DNA of 64,000 nt from Desulfobulbus propionicus (lineage in GTDB: Bacteria; Desulfobacterota; Desulfobulbia; Desulfobulbales; Desulfobulbaceae): positions 25,204 to 89,203 of the forward strand of contig PDQK01000027.1 of the NCBI GenBank assembly GCA_002746685.1, written 5' to 3'. Positions 42,656 through 49,986 of the stretch are shown here, piece after piece. Under the pieces are notes generated by a model. The model was not told the origin of the DNA. It ran no database searches and saw nothing but the letters and a program-made list of their open reading frames with translations. The position numbers were made by a program, and so were the translations under genes. Numbering within the stretch: position 1 is the stretch's first letter; every line of letters starts with the position of its first letter.

Positions 42656-42793
42656 TCCTCCTGCTGTGTTTTTACTCGACAACCACCCGCTTTTCCTTAT
42701 CTTTTTTCGCTTTTCCTTGAAAAAGTTCTTTGCTATTTGCCTATCCTGTGGCACTCTAAAAATAAAGTTCATCTTTTCCATTTGAGGTTCCCA

Positions 42794-43483
42794 TTGCAGG
42801 CGTTACAGGATTTTTTCTCCAAGGTAGAAGATAAAAAAGCTGTTCGGGTTACGCTTCCCGTCACAGGCGGGAAGCAGTATGAACGACTCCAATGCGTATA
42901 TGGGAAAGATACTCCGCCCTGCTTTTTGCTTTACTTTCCAGATACCTGCCTGACCGCGCTGTCTTTGCAGCCTGAAGAAAACGCTGTTGTAACAGTTGAT
43001 ATTGCTGGTCAGGCTATTTCAGTTACTGTCACCATCAGTGCAATTATTGATGACAGCACTCTCAAAGTGGAAGCACAGTCTGTCACCAGCCACGAACAGG
43101 AGCGTAATTATTTCCGGGTTGATGCCAGCGCACCCATTGTTGCGGCTCCAATCGTAAGTGGCCTGCAGGTTGAAGACAAAGAGAGCTGGGTACTGGAAGG
43201 GGAAACCATGGATTTGAGCGGCAGCGGTGCCTTATGCTCCTTTCCCAAGCCCCTTGAGCGTGGGAAAAAAATCCGTATTGCCCTTATTCTGCCCACAGGA
43301 ATCATGGAAGAAATCCAGATTATTGGCAGCGTGGTTCGGTGTAAAAAGATTCATGATGAGCTGTATCATATTGGGCTTAGCTTTGATGGACTCACCAGTG
43401 AGAGCAGGGACAAAATTATGGGCAGCTGTTTTGAACTGCAGCGCAAGCACTTACGCCTAAAAGTACACGTTAAGGATACTTAA
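42794..43483 (+). CDS. PilZ-domain c-di-GMP receptor (flagellar brake-like)
   Basis: ERNYFRV (RxxxR) and DLSGSG (DxSxxG); TTG start after GAGG assumed, ORF open from 42737. Confidence 0.85.
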   Translation: MQALQDFFSKVEDKKAVRVTLPVTGGKQYERLQCVYGKDTPPCFLLYFPDTCLTALSLQPEENAVVTVDIAGQAISVTVTISAIIDDSTLKVEAQSVTSHEQERNYFRVDASAPIVAAPIVSGLQVEDKESWVLEGETMDLSGSGALCSFPKPLERGKKIRIALILPTGIMEEIQIIGSVVRCKKIHDELYHIGLSFDGLTSESRDKIMGSCFELQRKHLRLKVHVKDT

Positions 43484-43508
43484 TAAACCTCAAACACATA
43501 GTGTAAAC

Positions 43509-44183
43509 GTGGGAAAAATAGAGGAATTAGTCGAAAAATTAAGGGATGGTTCTGAAGCCGTTCTTGATCTGACCGATAAGAATGGTAATACACACCGCCT
43601 GAATGCATTGTATGCGCAAGGCGACACACCTCGTTTTGAGCTTTTTTTCCCACCTAATGCCTGGAAATCAAGTGACTTGGCCCTTGGGGTGAACTGTCAG
43701 GTAATGGTGAGACACAAGGGGGTGGGGGTAAACCTGGTTGCCGAACTTGACCAGATATTAAACAAGCGTCGGTTACAATTTATTGCCCGTGAACCCATTA
43801 AACCAGAAGCATTGCGCGAGTATTTCAGGGTCCTGATCAACACCACTGTTGAAATTGGGTATATTCCAGGCCCCAAAGAAGTAAAAACCAAAAAATGGCA
43901 AATGGTGGGCACCACGGTTGATTTAAGTGCCAGCGGAGTTTTGGGCTTGTTTGCAGAGAAACCCCCTAGCAACAATCGACTCCAGATACGCATTATTGAT
44001 CCGTCAACCTTAACTCCGATTGCCTGTATTGGGCATGTGGTCCGTACCTACAGAATGCGCAAGAAACGATATCAGGTAGCGCTCCACTTTGACAATGTGG
44101 AACAATCTCTACGTGACAAGTTAATAGCCTGTTGCCTTGCTGAGCAGCGTAAGCAGCTTCGGGAGAATGTTGAAGCTGGGTAG
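43509..44183 (+). CDS. Second PilZ-domain protein
   Basis: LREYFRV and DLSASG; same layout as upstream gene. Confidence 0.85.
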   Translation: MGKIEELVEKLRDGSEAVLDLTDKNGNTHRLNALYAQGDTPRFELFFPPNAWKSSDLALGVNCQVMVRHKGVGVNLVAELDQILNKRRLQFIAREPIKPEALREYFRVLINTTVEIGYIPGPKEVKTKKWQMVGTTVDLSASGVLGLFAEKPPSNNRLQIRIIDPSTLTPIACIGHVVRTYRMRKKRYQVALHFDNVEQSLRDKLIACCLAEQRKQLRENVEAG

Positions 44184-44343
44184 TTCAGTTATCATAGGTT
44201 GGATAAAAAAAAGCAGTCTAACAACACAATAACCGCTTAGGTTTCGCAAGCTCAGCGCCAACCTGCCAGCTCTTTGCTTTCTTCATTGTGCTTACCTGGC
44301 TCGGCTCTTGTTTTTCTCAAATCATTTTCTGCCTGAGGCTCTT

Positions 44344-45798
44344 ATGGATTTCCCTCTGCCTCCCGCCTCATTTGTAAACATCCAGCAGCATGACAACCAG
44401 TTGCAAACTCCTGGCGCACAAAAACACCAACCACTCGCTCCAGGTCAGGTGCTCCTGGGAGTTGTCAGGGCTAAAGGTGAGAATACTACCTATCAGCTTG
44501 ATATTGGAGGCAAACAGGTTCTGGCGCAATCTAATCTTCCTCTTCACGTTGGGCAAAAGCTCAATCTGCAGATAACGAAACTTGCCCCTCAGATTGCATT
44601 ACAGGTAATCAGCACTCCACAGACGACCAGACAACTCACCGGTTCCATTCACCTGTTGAGCAAGCAAAGCAGTTTCCTTACCAACCTGACCGAGCTTGCA
44701 TCTCAGGCAAACCAGGCAAACATCAGTCAACCATCACAGCAGACCCTGAAAACTGTAGCGCAACAGGCAAACACCCTCTTTTCTTTGACTGGGCGAGAGA
44801 AAACAGAGGCCGTCACCAACCTGTTCCAACATATCCTCCAGGCGCTCCAACCAGGCAAACCAGCTGTATTGCCACAATCGCCAGCATTGCAAACGACCTT
44901 GCACAATATACTTGGCAGGAGTAATGGGCAAGCCAATGCCGCTCCCCCTGCAGTGAGGCAAATTCTGCAAACTCTTTCTCCAGGCAGTATTATTCCGCTT
45001 ACTGCTCCGTTCAGTCCATTGTCCACCTCTGGAGACCTTGCACAGCTCATCAATTCCAACACCCAGGCTGCACCTCAGGTGCTTACCCTTGCTCAGCAGA
45101 TCTTACGTTTTTTCACCGCACAAACAACGGTTGCGCCATCGTCTGAATTGCACGCATTAATCAGCCTTGGACTGCAGCAGAGTAGTGATACCCGGGAGCC
45201 AACCGGCCAGGCCCTCCACCAGCTTGTTGATCGACTTGGCCTCAACATGGAGCAACTCCTAGCCCAAGGTAAGCGGGAAGAAGCAGTACAAACCTTGAAA
45301 TTTGCGCTGCTTGAGCTGGGCCAACAGCTCACTGGCACCACCACATCTGGTGAGCAGGCAAACCAGATGCTCCAGACTGTAGAATTGTACCAGATGCTGC
45401 AGGTGAAATTAGCAAGCGAAGCCATCTTTTTTATGCCGCTGCCCCTTCCTTTTCTTGATCAAGGGTATTTGATCATCGATCAACAGCCAGAACAAGAGAA
45501 TCAGGGGCAAAACGAGGGAGAAACAACAACACAGTACACCCTCCATCTCCAGCTTGAAGGTCTCGGTAATCTGCGTATTGAAATCAAACAGCGGGAAACC
45601 AGCGCAGATATCAATTTTTACGGGGAAGATCAGCAAAAAATGGCCTTCATGAGAGAACATAAGGAAGAGTTGGCGAGGTGGCTGACTGCCATAGAGCTTT
45701 CTTCAGCCCAATTTTTTACAGGAGCAGAAAATCCTGCTCAAGCGTTACTCAAAAACATAGCAAATGCTCCAGCAGGAATGATAAACACCCAGGCATAA
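44344..45798 (+). CDS. FliK-like protein (second T3S4-type domain)
   Basis: Q/P-rich; C-terminal LHLQLEGLGNLRIEI...ELARWL; paired with FlhB C-terminal-like gene. Confidence 0.6.
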   Translation: MDFPLPPASFVNIQQHDNQLQTPGAQKHQPLAPGQVLLGVVRAKGENTTYQLDIGGKQVLAQSNLPLHVGQKLNLQITKLAPQIALQVISTPQTTRQLTGSIHLLSKQSSFLTNLTELASQANQANISQPSQQTLKTVAQQANTLFSLTGREKTEAVTNLFQHILQALQPGKPAVLPQSPALQTTLHNILGRSNGQANAAPPAVRQILQTLSPGSIIPLTAPFSPLSTSGDLAQLINSNTQAAPQVLTLAQQILRFFTAQTTVAPSSELHALISLGLQQSSDTREPTGQALHQLVDRLGLNMEQLLAQGKREEAVQTLKFALLELGQQLTGTTTSGEQANQMLQTVELYQMLQVKLASEAIFFMPLPLPFLDQGYLIIDQQPEQENQGQNEGETTTQYTLHLQLEGLGNLRIEIKQRETSADINFYGEDQQKMAFMREHKEELARWLTAIELSSAQFFTGAENPAQALLKNIANAPAGMINTQA

Positions 45799-45804
45799 AT
45801 ACCT

Positions 45805-46119
45805 ATGAACCAGGCAGATAAGCGTGAAAAAGCAGTCGCCCTACTCTATGACGAATCAAAGGGCACAGCCCCCGAAGTGGTTGCCAGTGGCAAAGGTGTT
45901 GTCGCGCGTAACATTATTGCAGCTGCCAAGGAAGCCGGGGTATACCTCAAAAAAGATCCTGATCTGGTGGAACTGCTTGCTCAAGTACCCATAGGACAGG
46001 AGTTACCAGCCGAACTGTACCAAACCGTGGCAGAGGTGTTAGCCTTTGTCTATTCCGTAAATGACAAGTTTAAACAAAAAGTTACCCTGCCTGCTGAACG
46101 CAAAAAAACACGTAATTAA
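45805..46119 (+). CDS. FlhB C-terminal-like protein (EscU/YscU family; FlhX/YlqH-like)
   Basis: KAVALLYD..APEVVASGKG.VA..I, PAELYQTVAEVLAFVY. Confidence 0.9.
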   Translation: MNQADKREKAVALLYDESKGTAPEVVASGKGVVARNIIAAAKEAGVYLKKDPDLVELLAQVPIGQELPAELYQTVAEVLAFVYSVNDKFKQKVTLPAERKKTRN

Positions 46120-46294
46120 TACCGACAATTTTCAATACACACCAAAACCACCAGACAAAAAAGGGAAAAAGAAAAAATCACTAAAAACCCCTTCATATAT
46201 CTTTTTTTCTGGCGTATACTCGTTATAACGGAATTAAGTATTAATTTGGGCCTTTTATTTTCATAAACAGCTTTGACGTGCACGAGGTAGCAAT

Positions 46295-46693
46295 ATGAAT
46301 TATGGAGTTGTTAGCCAGGAGCAGCTTGAAAAGATTGACGTAATCCTGAACGAAAAACTCATAAAAATTGGAGTGGACTGCGTTATCATCATCGACATGG
46401 CAGGGAACATTATCACAGCCAAAGATAATGGTACCTCAAAATACGATGTGTACTCCTTTGCTGCCCTTGCTGCAGGTAACTTTGCTACAGTTGATGCCAT
46501 GGCAAAGCTGGTTGGCGAACAGGAATTTTCACTGCTCTTTCACAAGGGAACCGATTGTAACATCCACTTCTCTAAAATTGATGACGAATTGCTGCTCATC
46601 ACCATGTTCGGCAAGAACATTTCCCTTGGCTTTCTCCGCTTAAATGTTGTGGAAACCATTGAGCGAATTAAAAAACTCTGGACCAACCAGTGA
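46295..46693 (+). CDS. mglB: Roadblock/LC7 protein MglB (GAP for MglA)
   Basis: ALAAGNFAT...AKLVGEQEFSLLFHKG...SLGFLRL; adjacent to mglA. Confidence 0.9.
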   Translation: MNYGVVSQEQLEKIDVILNEKLIKIGVDCVIIIDMAGNIITAKDNGTSKYDVYSFAALAAGNFATVDAMAKLVGEQEFSLLFHKGTDCNIHFSKIDDELLLITMFGKNISLGFLRLNVVETIERIKKLWTNQ

Positions 46694-46771
46694 TTTTTAA
46701 GCTGAACACCCCCTCGATTCCATGTATCGCCTTTTCCTCAAGTACGATTCAACCGGCAGTAGGAGAGAGTT

Positions 46772-47377
46772 TTGAGTTTCATAAATCTCAAGGATAAAAT
46801 CGTTCAGGTTAAGATTGTTTATTACGGTCCTGGTCGTGGCGGAAAAACAACCAACCTGGAATATATTAATCGCAAATTCTCCAAGCAAATCATGTCTGAA
46901 ATGGTCAGCCTGAAAACCCATGGCGACCGGACCTTATTTTTCGATTTTCTTCCCTTTAATATGGGACAGATTAAAGGTTATGAATTGAAAATTCAGCTTT
47001 ACACTGTTCCCGGACAGGTAAAATACAACGCTACCAGAAAACTTGTTTTAAAGGGTGTTGACGGCATTGTATTTGTTGCCGATGCTCAGGAACAGATGCG
47101 AGAGAAAAACATCCGTTCGCTCAACCAACTCCACGAAAACCTGAGCGACTATAATGAATCCATTTTCCGTATTCCTTTGGTATTGCAGTACAACAAGGTG
47201 GATTTGCGGAATCAGGGGATCCCCATTTTGCCCATCTCCATTCTGGAAAAGGATCTCAACTCCAAGTTAAAGGTTCCAGCCTATGAAGGCAGTGCACTAA
47301 CAGGGTACAACGTTGCTGAAACATTGAAAAAAATCATTTCATCCACAGTAATCTCAATCCAGAAAAAGCTTCAGTAA
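46772..47377 (+). CDS. mglA: Ras-like small GTPase MglA
   Basis: KIVYYGPGRGGKTTNL, DRTLFFDF, LYTVPGQV, NKVD; TTG start. Confidence 0.95.
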   Translation: MSFINLKDKIVQVKIVYYGPGRGGKTTNLEYINRKFSKQIMSEMVSLKTHGDRTLFFDFLPFNMGQIKGYELKIQLYTVPGQVKYNATRKLVLKGVDGIVFVADAQEQMREKNIRSLNQLHENLSDYNESIFRIPLVLQYNKVDLRNQGIPILPISILEKDLNSKLKVPAYEGSALTGYNVAETLKKIISSTVISIQKKLQ

Positions 47378-47414
47378 AACGTAGGAATCGTACTACTCAA
47401 ATATCGGTCAGGTT

Positions 47415-49928
47415 ATGAAAAATTCCGCAAATGAACACAACAGCAATTTCGACGATTATGAGGATCTGACACTTTTTGCAGATGAATCCTTTGATACCGA
47501 GGATGTAGACCTTTTTGAATTCTCCAGTGAAGATGACTCGATTCTGACGCGTTTGAAATCCATCATTCTTTCTTTGGATTGGGAAATCAATGACGAAATT
47601 CTTGAAGAGCTCGCTGACGAAGTTACGGTACTGCAGAACGAATGGCAGGATGATAAGGTTGCCACCGTGTACCTGCAGGGACTTGATAAGATAGGTCGTT
47701 ATATCAAGAGCAAGGGTGCGTATGCACACCCAAACGCTATAAAGCTGCTGCTTACCTTCTATTATAATTTTGAAAAAATTACTTCCTCTGAATCTATCAA
47801 GGGAGATGAAATCGCTCTTTTGCTCAAAGGGGACATCAGAAAATTTCGCATCCTCCAATATCAGATTAACCAGGAAGAAGGTGGAGCTACTCCAGCTGTA
47901 GTCTCAGAAGCACCAATACTTTTACAATCGGATGCAGAAGAGACTGCGGTTACACCTGAAGAGAAAGATCACCTCAAGCTGCTCAAGGCCAGCATCTTGA
48001 GCCTGGACTGGGAAGTAACCGATGCCAGCCTGAAGCAATTCAATAAACAGCTCAACCGCTTTCAGGAAACTGCGGCGGATGACAAGCCTGTCATGGTGTT
48101 TATTCAAGGGCTCCGTGCACTGGGAGACTATATTGAAGAATCTGCGGCAAATGCTCACCCCGAGGCGTTTACCCTGCTTCATACCTTTTCAGAAGGACTT
48201 GAGCAAGTGCTTCATGTGGAGCCGGAGCAGCGTGATCAGGAGCAGTTACAAGAATTACTGACTGACCGAATTGCCAGACTCAATGCGCTCAAGGCGCTCA
48301 TTGTCAAAGAAACACATATTCCTCCCCAAGAAATCGTAGACGAAATTGTTGGTGAAATACTCCCTGAAGAGGAAATGGGGCCACCTGCTGAAGAGTTTCC
48401 CGCACCCACTGATGAACTTTCGATTCCTTTAGAGGAAGCGCTTGCGGGTTCAATGGAGACTAGCGAAAATGGTGATGGTGATATTGATATATTCATAGAA
48501 CTTGACGAATTGTTTCCAGATGAAGTTATGCCAGCAATGGAGACCTCAGACGAAAAATATCCTGACCAGGTTCTTCCTCCGGAAGCCATCACCCCTATTG
48601 ATGACGAGGTGTCTGACGAGTACATCACTTCCGAGTTACGGAATAAACGTGAGATTGCACCAGCACTCTCTGATGCCGACGAGGCGTTTGGCTTTACTGA
48701 AGATGCAGAGCCCCTTGATCTTCCAGCTCAAAGCGATCTTAACCAGCAGCTTGACAAACTCTTTGAAGATGGCTTACTCGATGATGTAGAAGAAAGCGAA
48801 TCCACACCAGAGGAGTCAGCTGATAAAGGAGATCTGGAAGCTGCGCTTGCCAATGTTGCTCTGCCCACCCAGGAAGATGAACAGCCTGCTGGGTTAGCTG
48901 AAGACGAAAGCGACAGCCTTGATATAGAAAGCAAACTGGACAGCTTTTTTGCTGACGATGATGAAGAAACTCCTGCTGTTGAGCCAGCTATTTCCTTTGA
49001 TGCTGAGCCAGAGGAAGAAGATGATGGCATGACCCCAGCCCTTGCTGGAGAAAATGAAGAGCAGGGTTTCTCCCTTGAAGATTCGGCTGAAGCACTTGAT
49101 GAGTCACCTCTTGATGATATAGAAGAAAAACTTGACTCCTTCTTTGATGAAAATGCTTTTGCACCTTCATTGGCAGACGAGGAGGCTCCTGTAGAGGGAG
49201 CTGGGGAATCTTCAGCTTCTTTTGATAATGCTGACTCACCTGTAACAGCAGCCCTTGATGCGGCCCTGGCAGGTGAAGAGGTGCCCGAAAAAATTGCTCA
49301 GGGTAATGAACAAGAGGAACAGGAGCTCGAAGAGCAGCTTGATGACTTTTTCGGTACCGACCCAGAAGAAGCGCCTGCCATTGCACTTGAAGATACTCTC
49401 CCCTCAGCTCTTGAAGAAGCTGCCAAGCAGGAAGCGGTGGTGGATGGTCATGATGCTGCACTGGTACGTCTTGCTGCACTTGGGGCCGTATTGCCAGAAG
49501 TAGTGCGAGCGCCCAAGGATGAGCAGATAACTGAGGCAGCTCAGCTGGTTGATGAATTGAAAGCCTCAGTAACCAGTCCCGAGCATATCGTTCTGACCGG
49601 ATTCATGGGAGCTGTTGTTGATCAGCTGGTTCATAGCAGATTTATTGATCTGGCTGCCACTGAAAAACTGATTAACGGTCTGTACGAGAAGCTCCAGCAA
49701 GAAACGCTCTCCACAGCAGATCTGGCCAGCGGAATGGATCAATTCTTTAGCTGGCAAAAAGAGGTTGTCAATGCTGCTGCCAGAGAAAATGCTGGTGGAT
49801 TCCTGCCCTCTGCCGGGCAAACACCTGCACCTGAGACTACAACGGCTACCTCTGAACTTGATGTCATCCAGATCAGAAGTATTATCAGAGAAGAATTCAA
49901 TCAGCTGAAAGATGAGTTAAAAGGTTAA
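47415..49928 (+). CDS. Acidic repeat-containing hypothetical protein, candidate polar scaffold
   Basis: Duplicated LKxxILSLDWE...AHP helical domain, long D/E/P linker with LDx(F/L)F repeats, C-terminal IIREE helix. Confidence 0.75.
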   Translation: MKNSANEHNSNFDDYEDLTLFADESFDTEDVDLFEFSSEDDSILTRLKSIILSLDWEINDEILEELADEVTVLQNEWQDDKVATVYLQGLDKIGRYIKSKGAYAHPNAIKLLLTFYYNFEKITSSESIKGDEIALLLKGDIRKFRILQYQINQEEGGATPAVVSEAPILLQSDAEETAVTPEEKDHLKLLKASILSLDWEVTDASLKQFNKQLNRFQETAADDKPVMVFIQGLRALGDYIEESAANAHPEAFTLLHTFSEGLEQVLHVEPEQRDQEQLQELLTDRIARLNALKALIVKETHIPPQEIVDEIVGEILPEEEMGPPAEEFPAPTDELSIPLEEALAGSMETSENGDGDIDIFIELDELFPDEVMPAMETSDEKYPDQVLPPEAITPIDDEVSDEYITSELRNKREIAPALSDADEAFGFTEDAEPLDLPAQSDLNQQLDKLFEDGLLDDVEESESTPEESADKGDLEAALANVALPTQEDEQPAGLAEDESDSLDIESKLDSFFADDDEETPAVEPAISFDAEPEEEDDGMTPALAGENEEQGFSLEDSAEALDESPLDDIEEKLDSFFDENAFAPSLADEEAPVEGAGESSASFDNADSPVTAALDAALAGEEVPEKIAQGNEQEEQELEEQLDDFFGTDPEEAPAIALEDTLPSALEEAAKQEAVVDGHDAALVRLAALGAVLPEVVRAPKDEQITEAAQLVDELKASVTSPEHIVLTGFMGAVVDQLVHSRFIDLAATEKLINGLYEKLQQETLSTADLASGMDQFFSWQKEVVNAAARENAGGFLPSAGQTPAPETTTATSELDVIQIRSIIREEFNQLKDELKG

Positions 49929-49958: not shown

Positions 49959-49986
49959 AGGGGGAGTTACCGTCTCCCCTTTTTTA
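49959..49986 (+). terminator. Terminator between convergent gene sets
   Basis: GGGGAG-ttaccgt-CTCCCC followed by TTTTTT. Confidence 0.7.

Follow-up and report, generated by a model that had tools for sequence, protein, structure and literature searches.

What does a Ras-like polarity switch do at the end of a cluster of flagellar genes, and what is the large protein encoded directly behind it? MglA and MglB form the model bacterial Ras-like polarity switch, and the regulators RomR, RomX, RomY, and MglC are known almost only from Myxococcus. Here we analysed a window of 64,000 nucleotides (nt), by which we mean the whole stretch, from Desulfobulbus propionicus (assembly GCA_002746685.1, contig PDQK01000027.1, positions 25,204 to 89,203 of the forward strand). 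In this window mglB and mglA are followed by a third gene, whose acidic product of 837 amino acids (aa) is called X as a working name. We favor the reading that the three genes form an autonomous polarity GTPase unit in which X, the third component, would present MglB-tail-like helices to MglA. The unit consists of three co-oriented open reading frames (ORFs).

46295 to 46693, plus strand: mglB, tail-less Roadblock/LC7 protein, 132 aa
46772 to 47377, plus strand: mglA, Ras-like GTPase, 201 aa, TTG start
47415 to 49928, plus strand: X, acidic protein of 837 aa with several domains, family unnamed

Conservation of the mglB-mglA-X unit

The genes are closely spaced, with 78 nt between mglB and mglA and 37 nt between mglA and X. 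The first-pass annotation of this DNA had described the trio as one co-oriented unit behind flagellar genes that ends in a terminator, with an MglA that retains the Arg of DRT and the Gln of PGQ and with an 837-aa scaffold as the third product. The ORFs and the hairpin were recovered as described, and both residues are found in the translation. Synteny across many families of Desulfobacterota bears out the conservation of the unit, and X stands as an undescribed scaffold-like partner.

Neither the whole of X nor any part of it matched a Pfam or NCBIfam model, even at E ≤ 10, while an exhaustive search returned homologues in 814 representative clusters at E ≤ 1e-3. Full-length homologues are numerous in Desulfobulbaceae, and outside that family only a 119-aa module is conserved. 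The profile of this module matched 96 of 401 sampled Desulfobacterota genomes (72 of 254 genera), and MglA was present in 89 of the 96. We then surveyed 97 module-bearing loci from other genera and families. In 82 of them mglA lies within 1.5 kilobases (kb) upstream of the module gene on the same strand, and in 4 it lies 5–7.4 kb upstream; it is absent from the remaining 11, which comprise 3 contig edges and 8 true orphans. The median distance from the end of mglA to the module is 284 nt, and mglB accompanies mglA in 82 of 86 loci. Within Desulfobulbales, the only order among the best 80 loci of a search with a narrower module alignment, about 78 of 80 species loci hold the complete trio, as far as their sequence reaches, and the closest relatives of the locus studied here are found in Desulfogranum species. 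Collectively, these results show a strongly conserved and linked mglB-mglA-X unit, which is likely to be old and widespread in Desulfobacterota and to have X as its dedicated third component.

Two departures from the usual arrangement were observed. Several genomes (loci L230, L231, L232, L245, and L248) have two mglA paralogues, and behind each of them lies a separate module gene, which suggests that mglA and the module gene are duplicated together. In one family (f42; loci L071, L072, L194, and L195), the module gene lies 5–7.4 kb downstream of mglBA and not directly after it.

MglB tails and the anatomy of X

The local MglA is of the M. xanthus type. It aligns over its full length with M. 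xanthus MglA (E 6e-53; residues 1–194 on 1–189 of 6HJH/5YMX), and in comparison with the MglAB structures of M. xanthus (6IZW, 6H5B) and T. thermophilus (3T12) it is about 55% identical and has all catalytic residues. It keeps the P-loop GPGRGGKT, the Arg of GDRT, TVPGQ with Thr in place of Asp and with the catalytic Gln, and NKVD; these motifs are invariant or nearly so in 30 relatives. The gene is single copy in the source genome, which is 69% complete. As in Myxococcus and Thermus, a Roadblock MglB is encoded directly upstream in the same mglB-mglA order. This MglB scores 25.7 bits against Pfam Robl_LC7 (cut-off 23) and matches M. xanthus MglB in the Protein Data Bank (PDB) at 2.4e-15, with its residues 5–129 on residues 7–130 of 160. 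Against the NCBIfam MglB equivalog, a model built on the Thermus type, it scores 54.6 bits (1.3e-14), below the cut-off of 200. It ends about 3 residues past the Roadblock fold, and the C-terminal helix region is missing. The local system differs from those of Myxococcus and Thermus: its 132-aa MglB lacks the C-terminal helix (M. xanthus residues 147–157), a third gene is fixed to the pair, and RomR, RomX, and RomY have not been reported for Desulfobulbales.

In M. xanthus, the C-terminal helix of MglB (residues 147–157) docks in an allosteric MglA pocket made up of α5 and β2 and drives nucleotide exchange, and acidic MglB tails are reported to co-evolve with basic residues in α5 of MglA (Baranwal et al. 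2019, PMC6785124). We compared MglBs with and without X across the phylum. Among 80 MglBs encoded beside X, the chain extends a median of 5 aa past the Roadblock fold and at most 19, and the acidic motif was found in 0 of 80. In contrast, 5 of the 8 MglBs that lie beside mglA without an adjoining X have tails of 30–33 aa ending in EI[ST]D[DE]DI[DE][NK]LF. The MglB tail and X are therefore mutually exclusive (80 with X versus 8 without X). A motif of the same kind occurs in X itself: of 94 X ORFs, 60 have I[DE]xA[IV]DxLF no more than 130 residues ahead of their first module, and the density of such motifs is 2.34 per 1000 aa in X ORFs versus 0.22 in neighbouring ORFs. This pattern is the one predicted if the tail had been transferred onto X. 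Collectively, these comparisons suggest that X probably supplies in trans the MglA-docking helix that the local MglB lacks. At loci L264 to L268, the X-less MglBs end in a nearly invariant tail, ...AEITDDDIDNLF, a motif of the same kind as in X.

The protein X itself is composed of the following parts, all on the plus strand; AlphaFold 2 (AF2) confidence is given as pLDDT.

47496 to 47522, plus strand: N-terminal acidic-aromatic motif, D-V-D-L-F-E-F region, residues 28–36, from alignment conservation
47532 to 47888, plus strand: helical module copy 1, residues 40–158, five-helix bundle (hidden Markov model (HMM) 1.8e-42; AF2 pLDDT >90)
47964 to 48314, plus strand: helical module copy 2, residues 184–300 (HMM 5.6e-38)
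48315 to 49397, plus strand: disordered acidic linker, about 380 residues, proline-containing, 32% Asp plus Glu, from a composition scan
49398 to 49796, plus strand: third five-helix bundle at the C-terminus, about residues 662–794, a putative divergent module copy (AF2 pLDDT 83.6)
49848 to 49922, plus strand: terminal amphipathic helix, residues 812–836, predicted

The N-terminal motif corresponds to the I[DE]xA[IV]DxLF pattern described above. The linker holds five LDxFF motifs ([LIVM]-D-x-[LF]-F) at residues 363, 446, 508, 573, and 642, and a motif scan gave 6 observed, against 0.2 expected and a maximum of 2 in 1000 shuffles. At the C-terminus, I-R-x-E-F-x-x-L-[KR]-x-E is conserved in long and short members of the family; the short members (220–450 aa) are built alike on a smaller scale, with a single module and a linker between the N-terminal acidic motif and the terminal helix. 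The M. xanthus MglB helix is short and acidic and appears to end in [IL]-D-x-[LF]-F; similarly, ...DDDIDNLF closes the X-less MglBs of this phylum, and ...A-I-D-x-L-F or L-D-S-F-F is found in X proteins. Unlike the MglB helix, the motif in X sits on a separate protein, in up to eight copies, and within a long acidic linker.

The AlphaFold models of the N- and C-terminal parts of X have pLDDT values of 83–84. The best fold matches of module copy 2 are CheA P1 domains (Z 11.7 to 3kyj_A over 124/129 residues), with a TM score of 0.64 to the histidine phosphotransfer (HPt) cluster of Atlas. The C-terminal bundle matches CheA P1 1i5n_A at Z 13.5 with a root-mean-square deviation of 2.3 over 116/128 residues, and Foldseek gives a probability of 1.0 and a TM score of 0.75; the resemblance to CheA P1 rests on TM scores, probabilities, and VIA Z-scores, and a Z of 10–13 can be generic for helical bundles. 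At E ≤ 0.001, Foldseek returned no match for either model of X, and a sequence-profile search of the PDB, made with residues 1–310, gave chance matches only. The third module copy was not detected by the HMM in the sequence of X and appears only by its fold and by a weak hhalign match to the module (30% probability, E 5.6e-4). Compared with CheA P1 and HPt domains (1I5N, 3KYJ, 2LP4), X shares the five-helix up-down bundle and differs in lacking a phospho-accepting His, a detectable sequence relation, and a kinase context. The HPt profile (PF01627) gave no match at E ≤ 10 and an hhalign probability of 0.9%, and the second helix of all three bundles is free of His. As modeled, the bundles of X appear to be HPt-like by fold only, without a phospho-histidine.

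The flagellar neighborhood and the boundaries of the unit

According to Pfam and NCBIfam annotation of the window, a near-complete flagellar cluster of the FlhF/FlhG type lies 5' of the trio on the plus strand. It comprises fliF, fliG, fliI, fliK, flgE, motA, fliM, fliP, fliR, flhB, flhA, flhF of the signal recognition particle type, flhG of the MinD type, fliA, rod and ring genes, flgK, flgL, two flagellin genes, fliD, and fliS. Next come two genes for PilZ proteins, a second fliK-like gene, and flhB', which encodes only the C-terminal domain of FlhB. The gap from flhB' to mglB is 175 nt. On the 3' side, X is followed by convergent peptide-permease genes beyond a terminator-like hairpin. The elements next to the unit are as follows.

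44308 to 46119, plus strand: second fliK-like gene and FlhB-C-terminal-domain gene (Pfam Flg_hook, Bac_export_2), the last flagellar genes before the trio
46192 to 46220, plus strand: sigma-70-like promoter candidate TTCATA-17-TATACT, from a consensus scan, about 75–100 nt 5' of mglB
49960 to 49978, plus strand: terminator-like hairpin and T-run, from a consensus scan, 32 nt past the X stop codon and between convergent genes

The block that holds the promoter candidate is invariant 5' of mglB in six aligned relatives, and a core pattern, CTTCATATA-N10-16-CGTATA, occurs 5' of mglB in 65 loci, many of them without flagellar genes upstream. Inspection of the 175-nt gap by eye gave no convincing match to a sigma-28 or sigma-54 promoter. 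Since the promoter-like block is conserved whatever lies upstream and a hairpin follows X, mglB-mglA-X looks like a self-contained unit with a predicted promoter of its own.

These observations bear on the proposal of the first-pass annotation that the trio marks the pole for FlhF-dependent flagellation. In its strongest form, this proposal assigns the trio functionally to the flagellar cluster and has it mark the pole for flagellar assembly. It gains some plausibility from the position of the trio directly after the fliK-like/flhB' pair here, in Desulfogranum, in D. oligotrophicus, and altogether in 37 Desulfobulbales loci, from the polar nature of both systems, and from a consensus scan that saw no terminator in the gap between flhB' and mglB. 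However, 32 Desulfobulbales loci with at least 2.5 kb of upstream sequence lack fliK/flhB' upstream (11 further loci are uninformative), and several of the 37 have about 2 kb of other DNA between flhB' and mglB. Outside the family, no homologue of the flagellin, FlgK, FlgL, FliD, FliS, FliK, FlhB', or PilZ proteins of the window was found in 91 loci (1.12 Mb). The annotation had itself named a lack of conserved adjacency as evidence that would count against its proposal, and the adjacency is largely unconserved, being present in 37 of 69 informative Desulfobulbales loci and in 0 of 91 elsewhere. Moreover, in the loci that have the flagellar adjacency, conservation extends just as well to the unrelated permease genes 3' of X, and synteny at that depth thus carries no functional signal.

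The distribution of FlhA points in the same direction. It does not co-occur with X: among X-positive genomes 63 of 96 encode FlhA, and among X-negative ones 180 of 305 (odds ratio 1.3, p 0.28). It is missing from the cable bacterium Ca. Electronema halotolerans and from four other genomes, all of this family and at least 99% complete; control genomes were scored correctly. The trio is complete in three of the five (G016, G190, and Ca. Electronema halotolerans), and G095 and G250 retain only X. Together with the conserved promoter-like element, these data speak against the flagellar proposal, and we regard a role of the trio in flagellar assembly as quite improbable. Judged by gene order and co-occurrence, the flagellar adjacency is a local accident in part of one family (Desulfogranum and some Desulfobulbus), without a functional tie. 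The broader suggestion of the annotation, a polar output, loses its flagellar part and keeps pili as a possible target: PilT scored above the curated cut-off in all 5 genomes checked (the source genome, G160, G016, G095, and Ca. Electronema halotolerans), and T2SSE ATPases and tetratricopeptide repeat (TPR) proteins flank the trio elsewhere. An output in pili or general cell polarity is more likely than one in flagellar placement.

Regarding the flagellar genes themselves, the stretch from 42737 to 46119, behind fliS/fliT, encodes two PilZ proteins, the second FliK-like protein, and the protein with the FlhB C-terminal domain only, an order shared with relatives in Desulfogranum and Desulfobulbus. 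A possible role for the second fliK-like gene and flhB', which border the trio in just a part of Desulfobulbaceae, is that of an accessory pair for the export switch.

Proposed mechanism and alternative readings of X

In the mechanism we propose, X carries one to eight copies of an acidic [LIVM]-D-x-[LF]-F helix that we liken to the C-terminal helix of M. xanthus-type MglB. These helices would dock on MglA, and perhaps also on the MglB dimer, in a multivalent manner, and the docking would set where MglA is active, a task that in Myxococcus falls to RomR/RomX and the MglB tail. The architecture has a precedent in RomR, in which a folded N-terminal domain and a long disordered region precede a C-terminal helix that binds the Roadblock dimer MglC (PMC12719032); X shares this layout. 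The bundles and the terminal helix could give further contacts, as the RomX bundle does by binding MglA-GTP, and the long forms of X in Desulfobulbaceae would make the interaction with MglA multivalent. As a tentative extension, it is conceivable that in much of Desulfobacterota the MglA switch differs in regulatory design from that of Myxococcus, that the nucleotide-exchange helix of MglB has moved onto a separate multivalent pseudo-HPt scaffold, that the one to eight sites and the spacer length tune a polar cluster or condensate, and that in flagellated Desulfobulbaceae the system could choose the poles for flagellum and pili.

Several points weigh against the proposed role of X. The sample of X-less MglBs is only 8, and 3 of these 8 are also short-tailed; the sampled genomes are related to one another, so that the counts make them look more independent than they are. 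The local N-terminal motif, VDLFEF, departs from the strict pattern. The eight orphan X genes and the X genes kept without mglAB in G095 and G250 imply that X has some function without the GTPase. Read-through from flhB' into mglB is possible, as the gap between them showed no terminator. Finally, we infer the binding of X to MglA from a comparison of motifs and architecture; a complex prediction for MglA (30-row alignment), X residues 1–160, and GTP gave a score of 0.00 in a run without controls and carries no weight either way.

The fold by which receiver domains are classically bound is the HPt-type bundle. X could accordingly be an adaptor like RomX or RomR, whose pseudo-HPt bundle binds MglA-GTP, a REC-PATAN receiver, or both and recruits them to the pole, with the acidic motifs secondary. 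In favor of this doubtful though credible reading are the CheA P1 domains among the best fold matches of the bundles, the genes for REC-DUF4388 (PATAN), Zn-ribbon-HAMP, and PAS proteins 3' of the trio in other families, and the precedent of the RomX helical bundle, which bridges MglA-GTP and the receiver of RomR (bioRxiv 10.1101/2024.02.20.581209). The source genome also encodes a PATAN protein, and a table of RomR, RomX, and RomY, which covers Geobacter, Pelobacter, Myxococcales, and others, contains no Desulfobulbales, Desulfobacterales, or Desulfovibrionales, although its 1611-genome set may not include them (PMC9481161 S1). In comparison with RomR, X has no Pfam Response_reg match and no receiver domain, and its N-terminus is all-helical. 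The bundles of X are five-helix and CheA P1-like, and RomX is three-helix; RomX (PDB 8ZNA) was not among the fold matches listed, where other helical bundles took up the places. The X gene is tied to mglBA, and romR, romX, and romY lie scattered in their genomes. Against the adaptor reading, X shows no sequence relation to HPt, its fold scores can be generic for helical bundles, and in Desulfobulbaceae the REC-PATAN genes do not adjoin the trio. The CheA P1-like fold, together with a frequent His in an A-H-P motif, could be taken to mean that X takes part in a phosphorelay through genuine HPt domains. This His lies at a helix start and not on the second helix, many members have N, I, K, S, R, or P in its place, and the C-terminal copy has no conserved His; with no HPt profile match either, we rejected a true HPt function, which is extremely improbable.

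X might also organize the pole in general, in the manner of HubP/FimV or PopZ, with its acidic region and terminal helix driving self-assembly and with mglBA as only one client among many. X resembles HubP/FimV in being large, very acidic, repeat-bearing, and likely polar; its long acidic disordered region and conserved terminal helix fit such a hub, as do the eight orphan copies and the retention of X without mglAB in G095 and G250, and some sources automatically name the family FimV. Unlike HubP/FimV, X is cytoplasmic and linked to mglBA, and it has no LysM domain, membrane anchor, FimV motifs, or match to the FimV core or C-terminal models. The near-universal tight linkage to mglA and the mutual exclusion of X and the MglB tail also argue against a general hub, which we consider improbable. 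The two genomes in question, both at least 99% complete and without FlhA, encode an X of about 617 aa beside permease genes (L056 in G095 and L057 in G250) and have lost mglB and mglA; G095, the one checked for DUF4388/PATAN, has none.

The neighbors of the trio in other lineages fit the known partners of MglA elsewhere, which are TPR proteins, pili, and the Zn-ribbon of GltJ. In close relatives from other families, the signaling genes 3' of the trio encode Zn-ribbon-Cache-HAMP, PAS, and REC-PATAN (REC-DUF4388) proteins. In more distant lineages, histidine kinases, sigma-54 activators, TPR proteins, Ser/Thr kinases, and type II/IV secretion ATPases are encoded nearby. Two loci (L042, 4469–9415, and L047, 10328–14708) show a conserved set of such genes, with the trio followed by a protein of about 160 aa with a weak winged-helix match, Zn-ribbon-Cache-HAMP, an unknown protein of about 327 aa, PAS, and REC-DUF4388 (PATAN). 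The only PATAN (DUF4388) protein detected in the source genome is encoded on another contig (C16, 53869–54171) and is a candidate receiver-type partner of the trio.

A survey of Ras-like GTPases by Wuichet and Sogaard-Andersen described variable neighborhoods for this group of MglA (PMC4316618), and in the literature on MglA with flagella, cable bacteria, or Desulfobacterota we found no description of the third gene. The present work adds a phylum-wide profile survey, a formal count of adjacency, a test of the MglB tail against X, and a refutation of the flagellar link, removing as unsupported a tempting connection of MglA with the placement of flagella. About one in four of the sampled Desulfobacterota genomes has a third gene fixed to mglBA, which points to another mode of switch regulation. 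Among its carriers are sulfate reducers and gliding cable bacteria, for which there are no reports of RomR-type proteins. That the MglB tail may be supplied in trans and multiplied is a directly testable hypothesis.

Two minor features were also observed. In the window, the G+C content falls to 0.41 between 46001 and 48000, a region that holds mglB, mglA, and the 5' part of X, versus about 0.48 around it. At locus L040 (9188–10258), a 356-aa X ORF seems to continue into a membrane segment and a HAMP-like stretch, which is either a fusion or an artefact of ORF calling.

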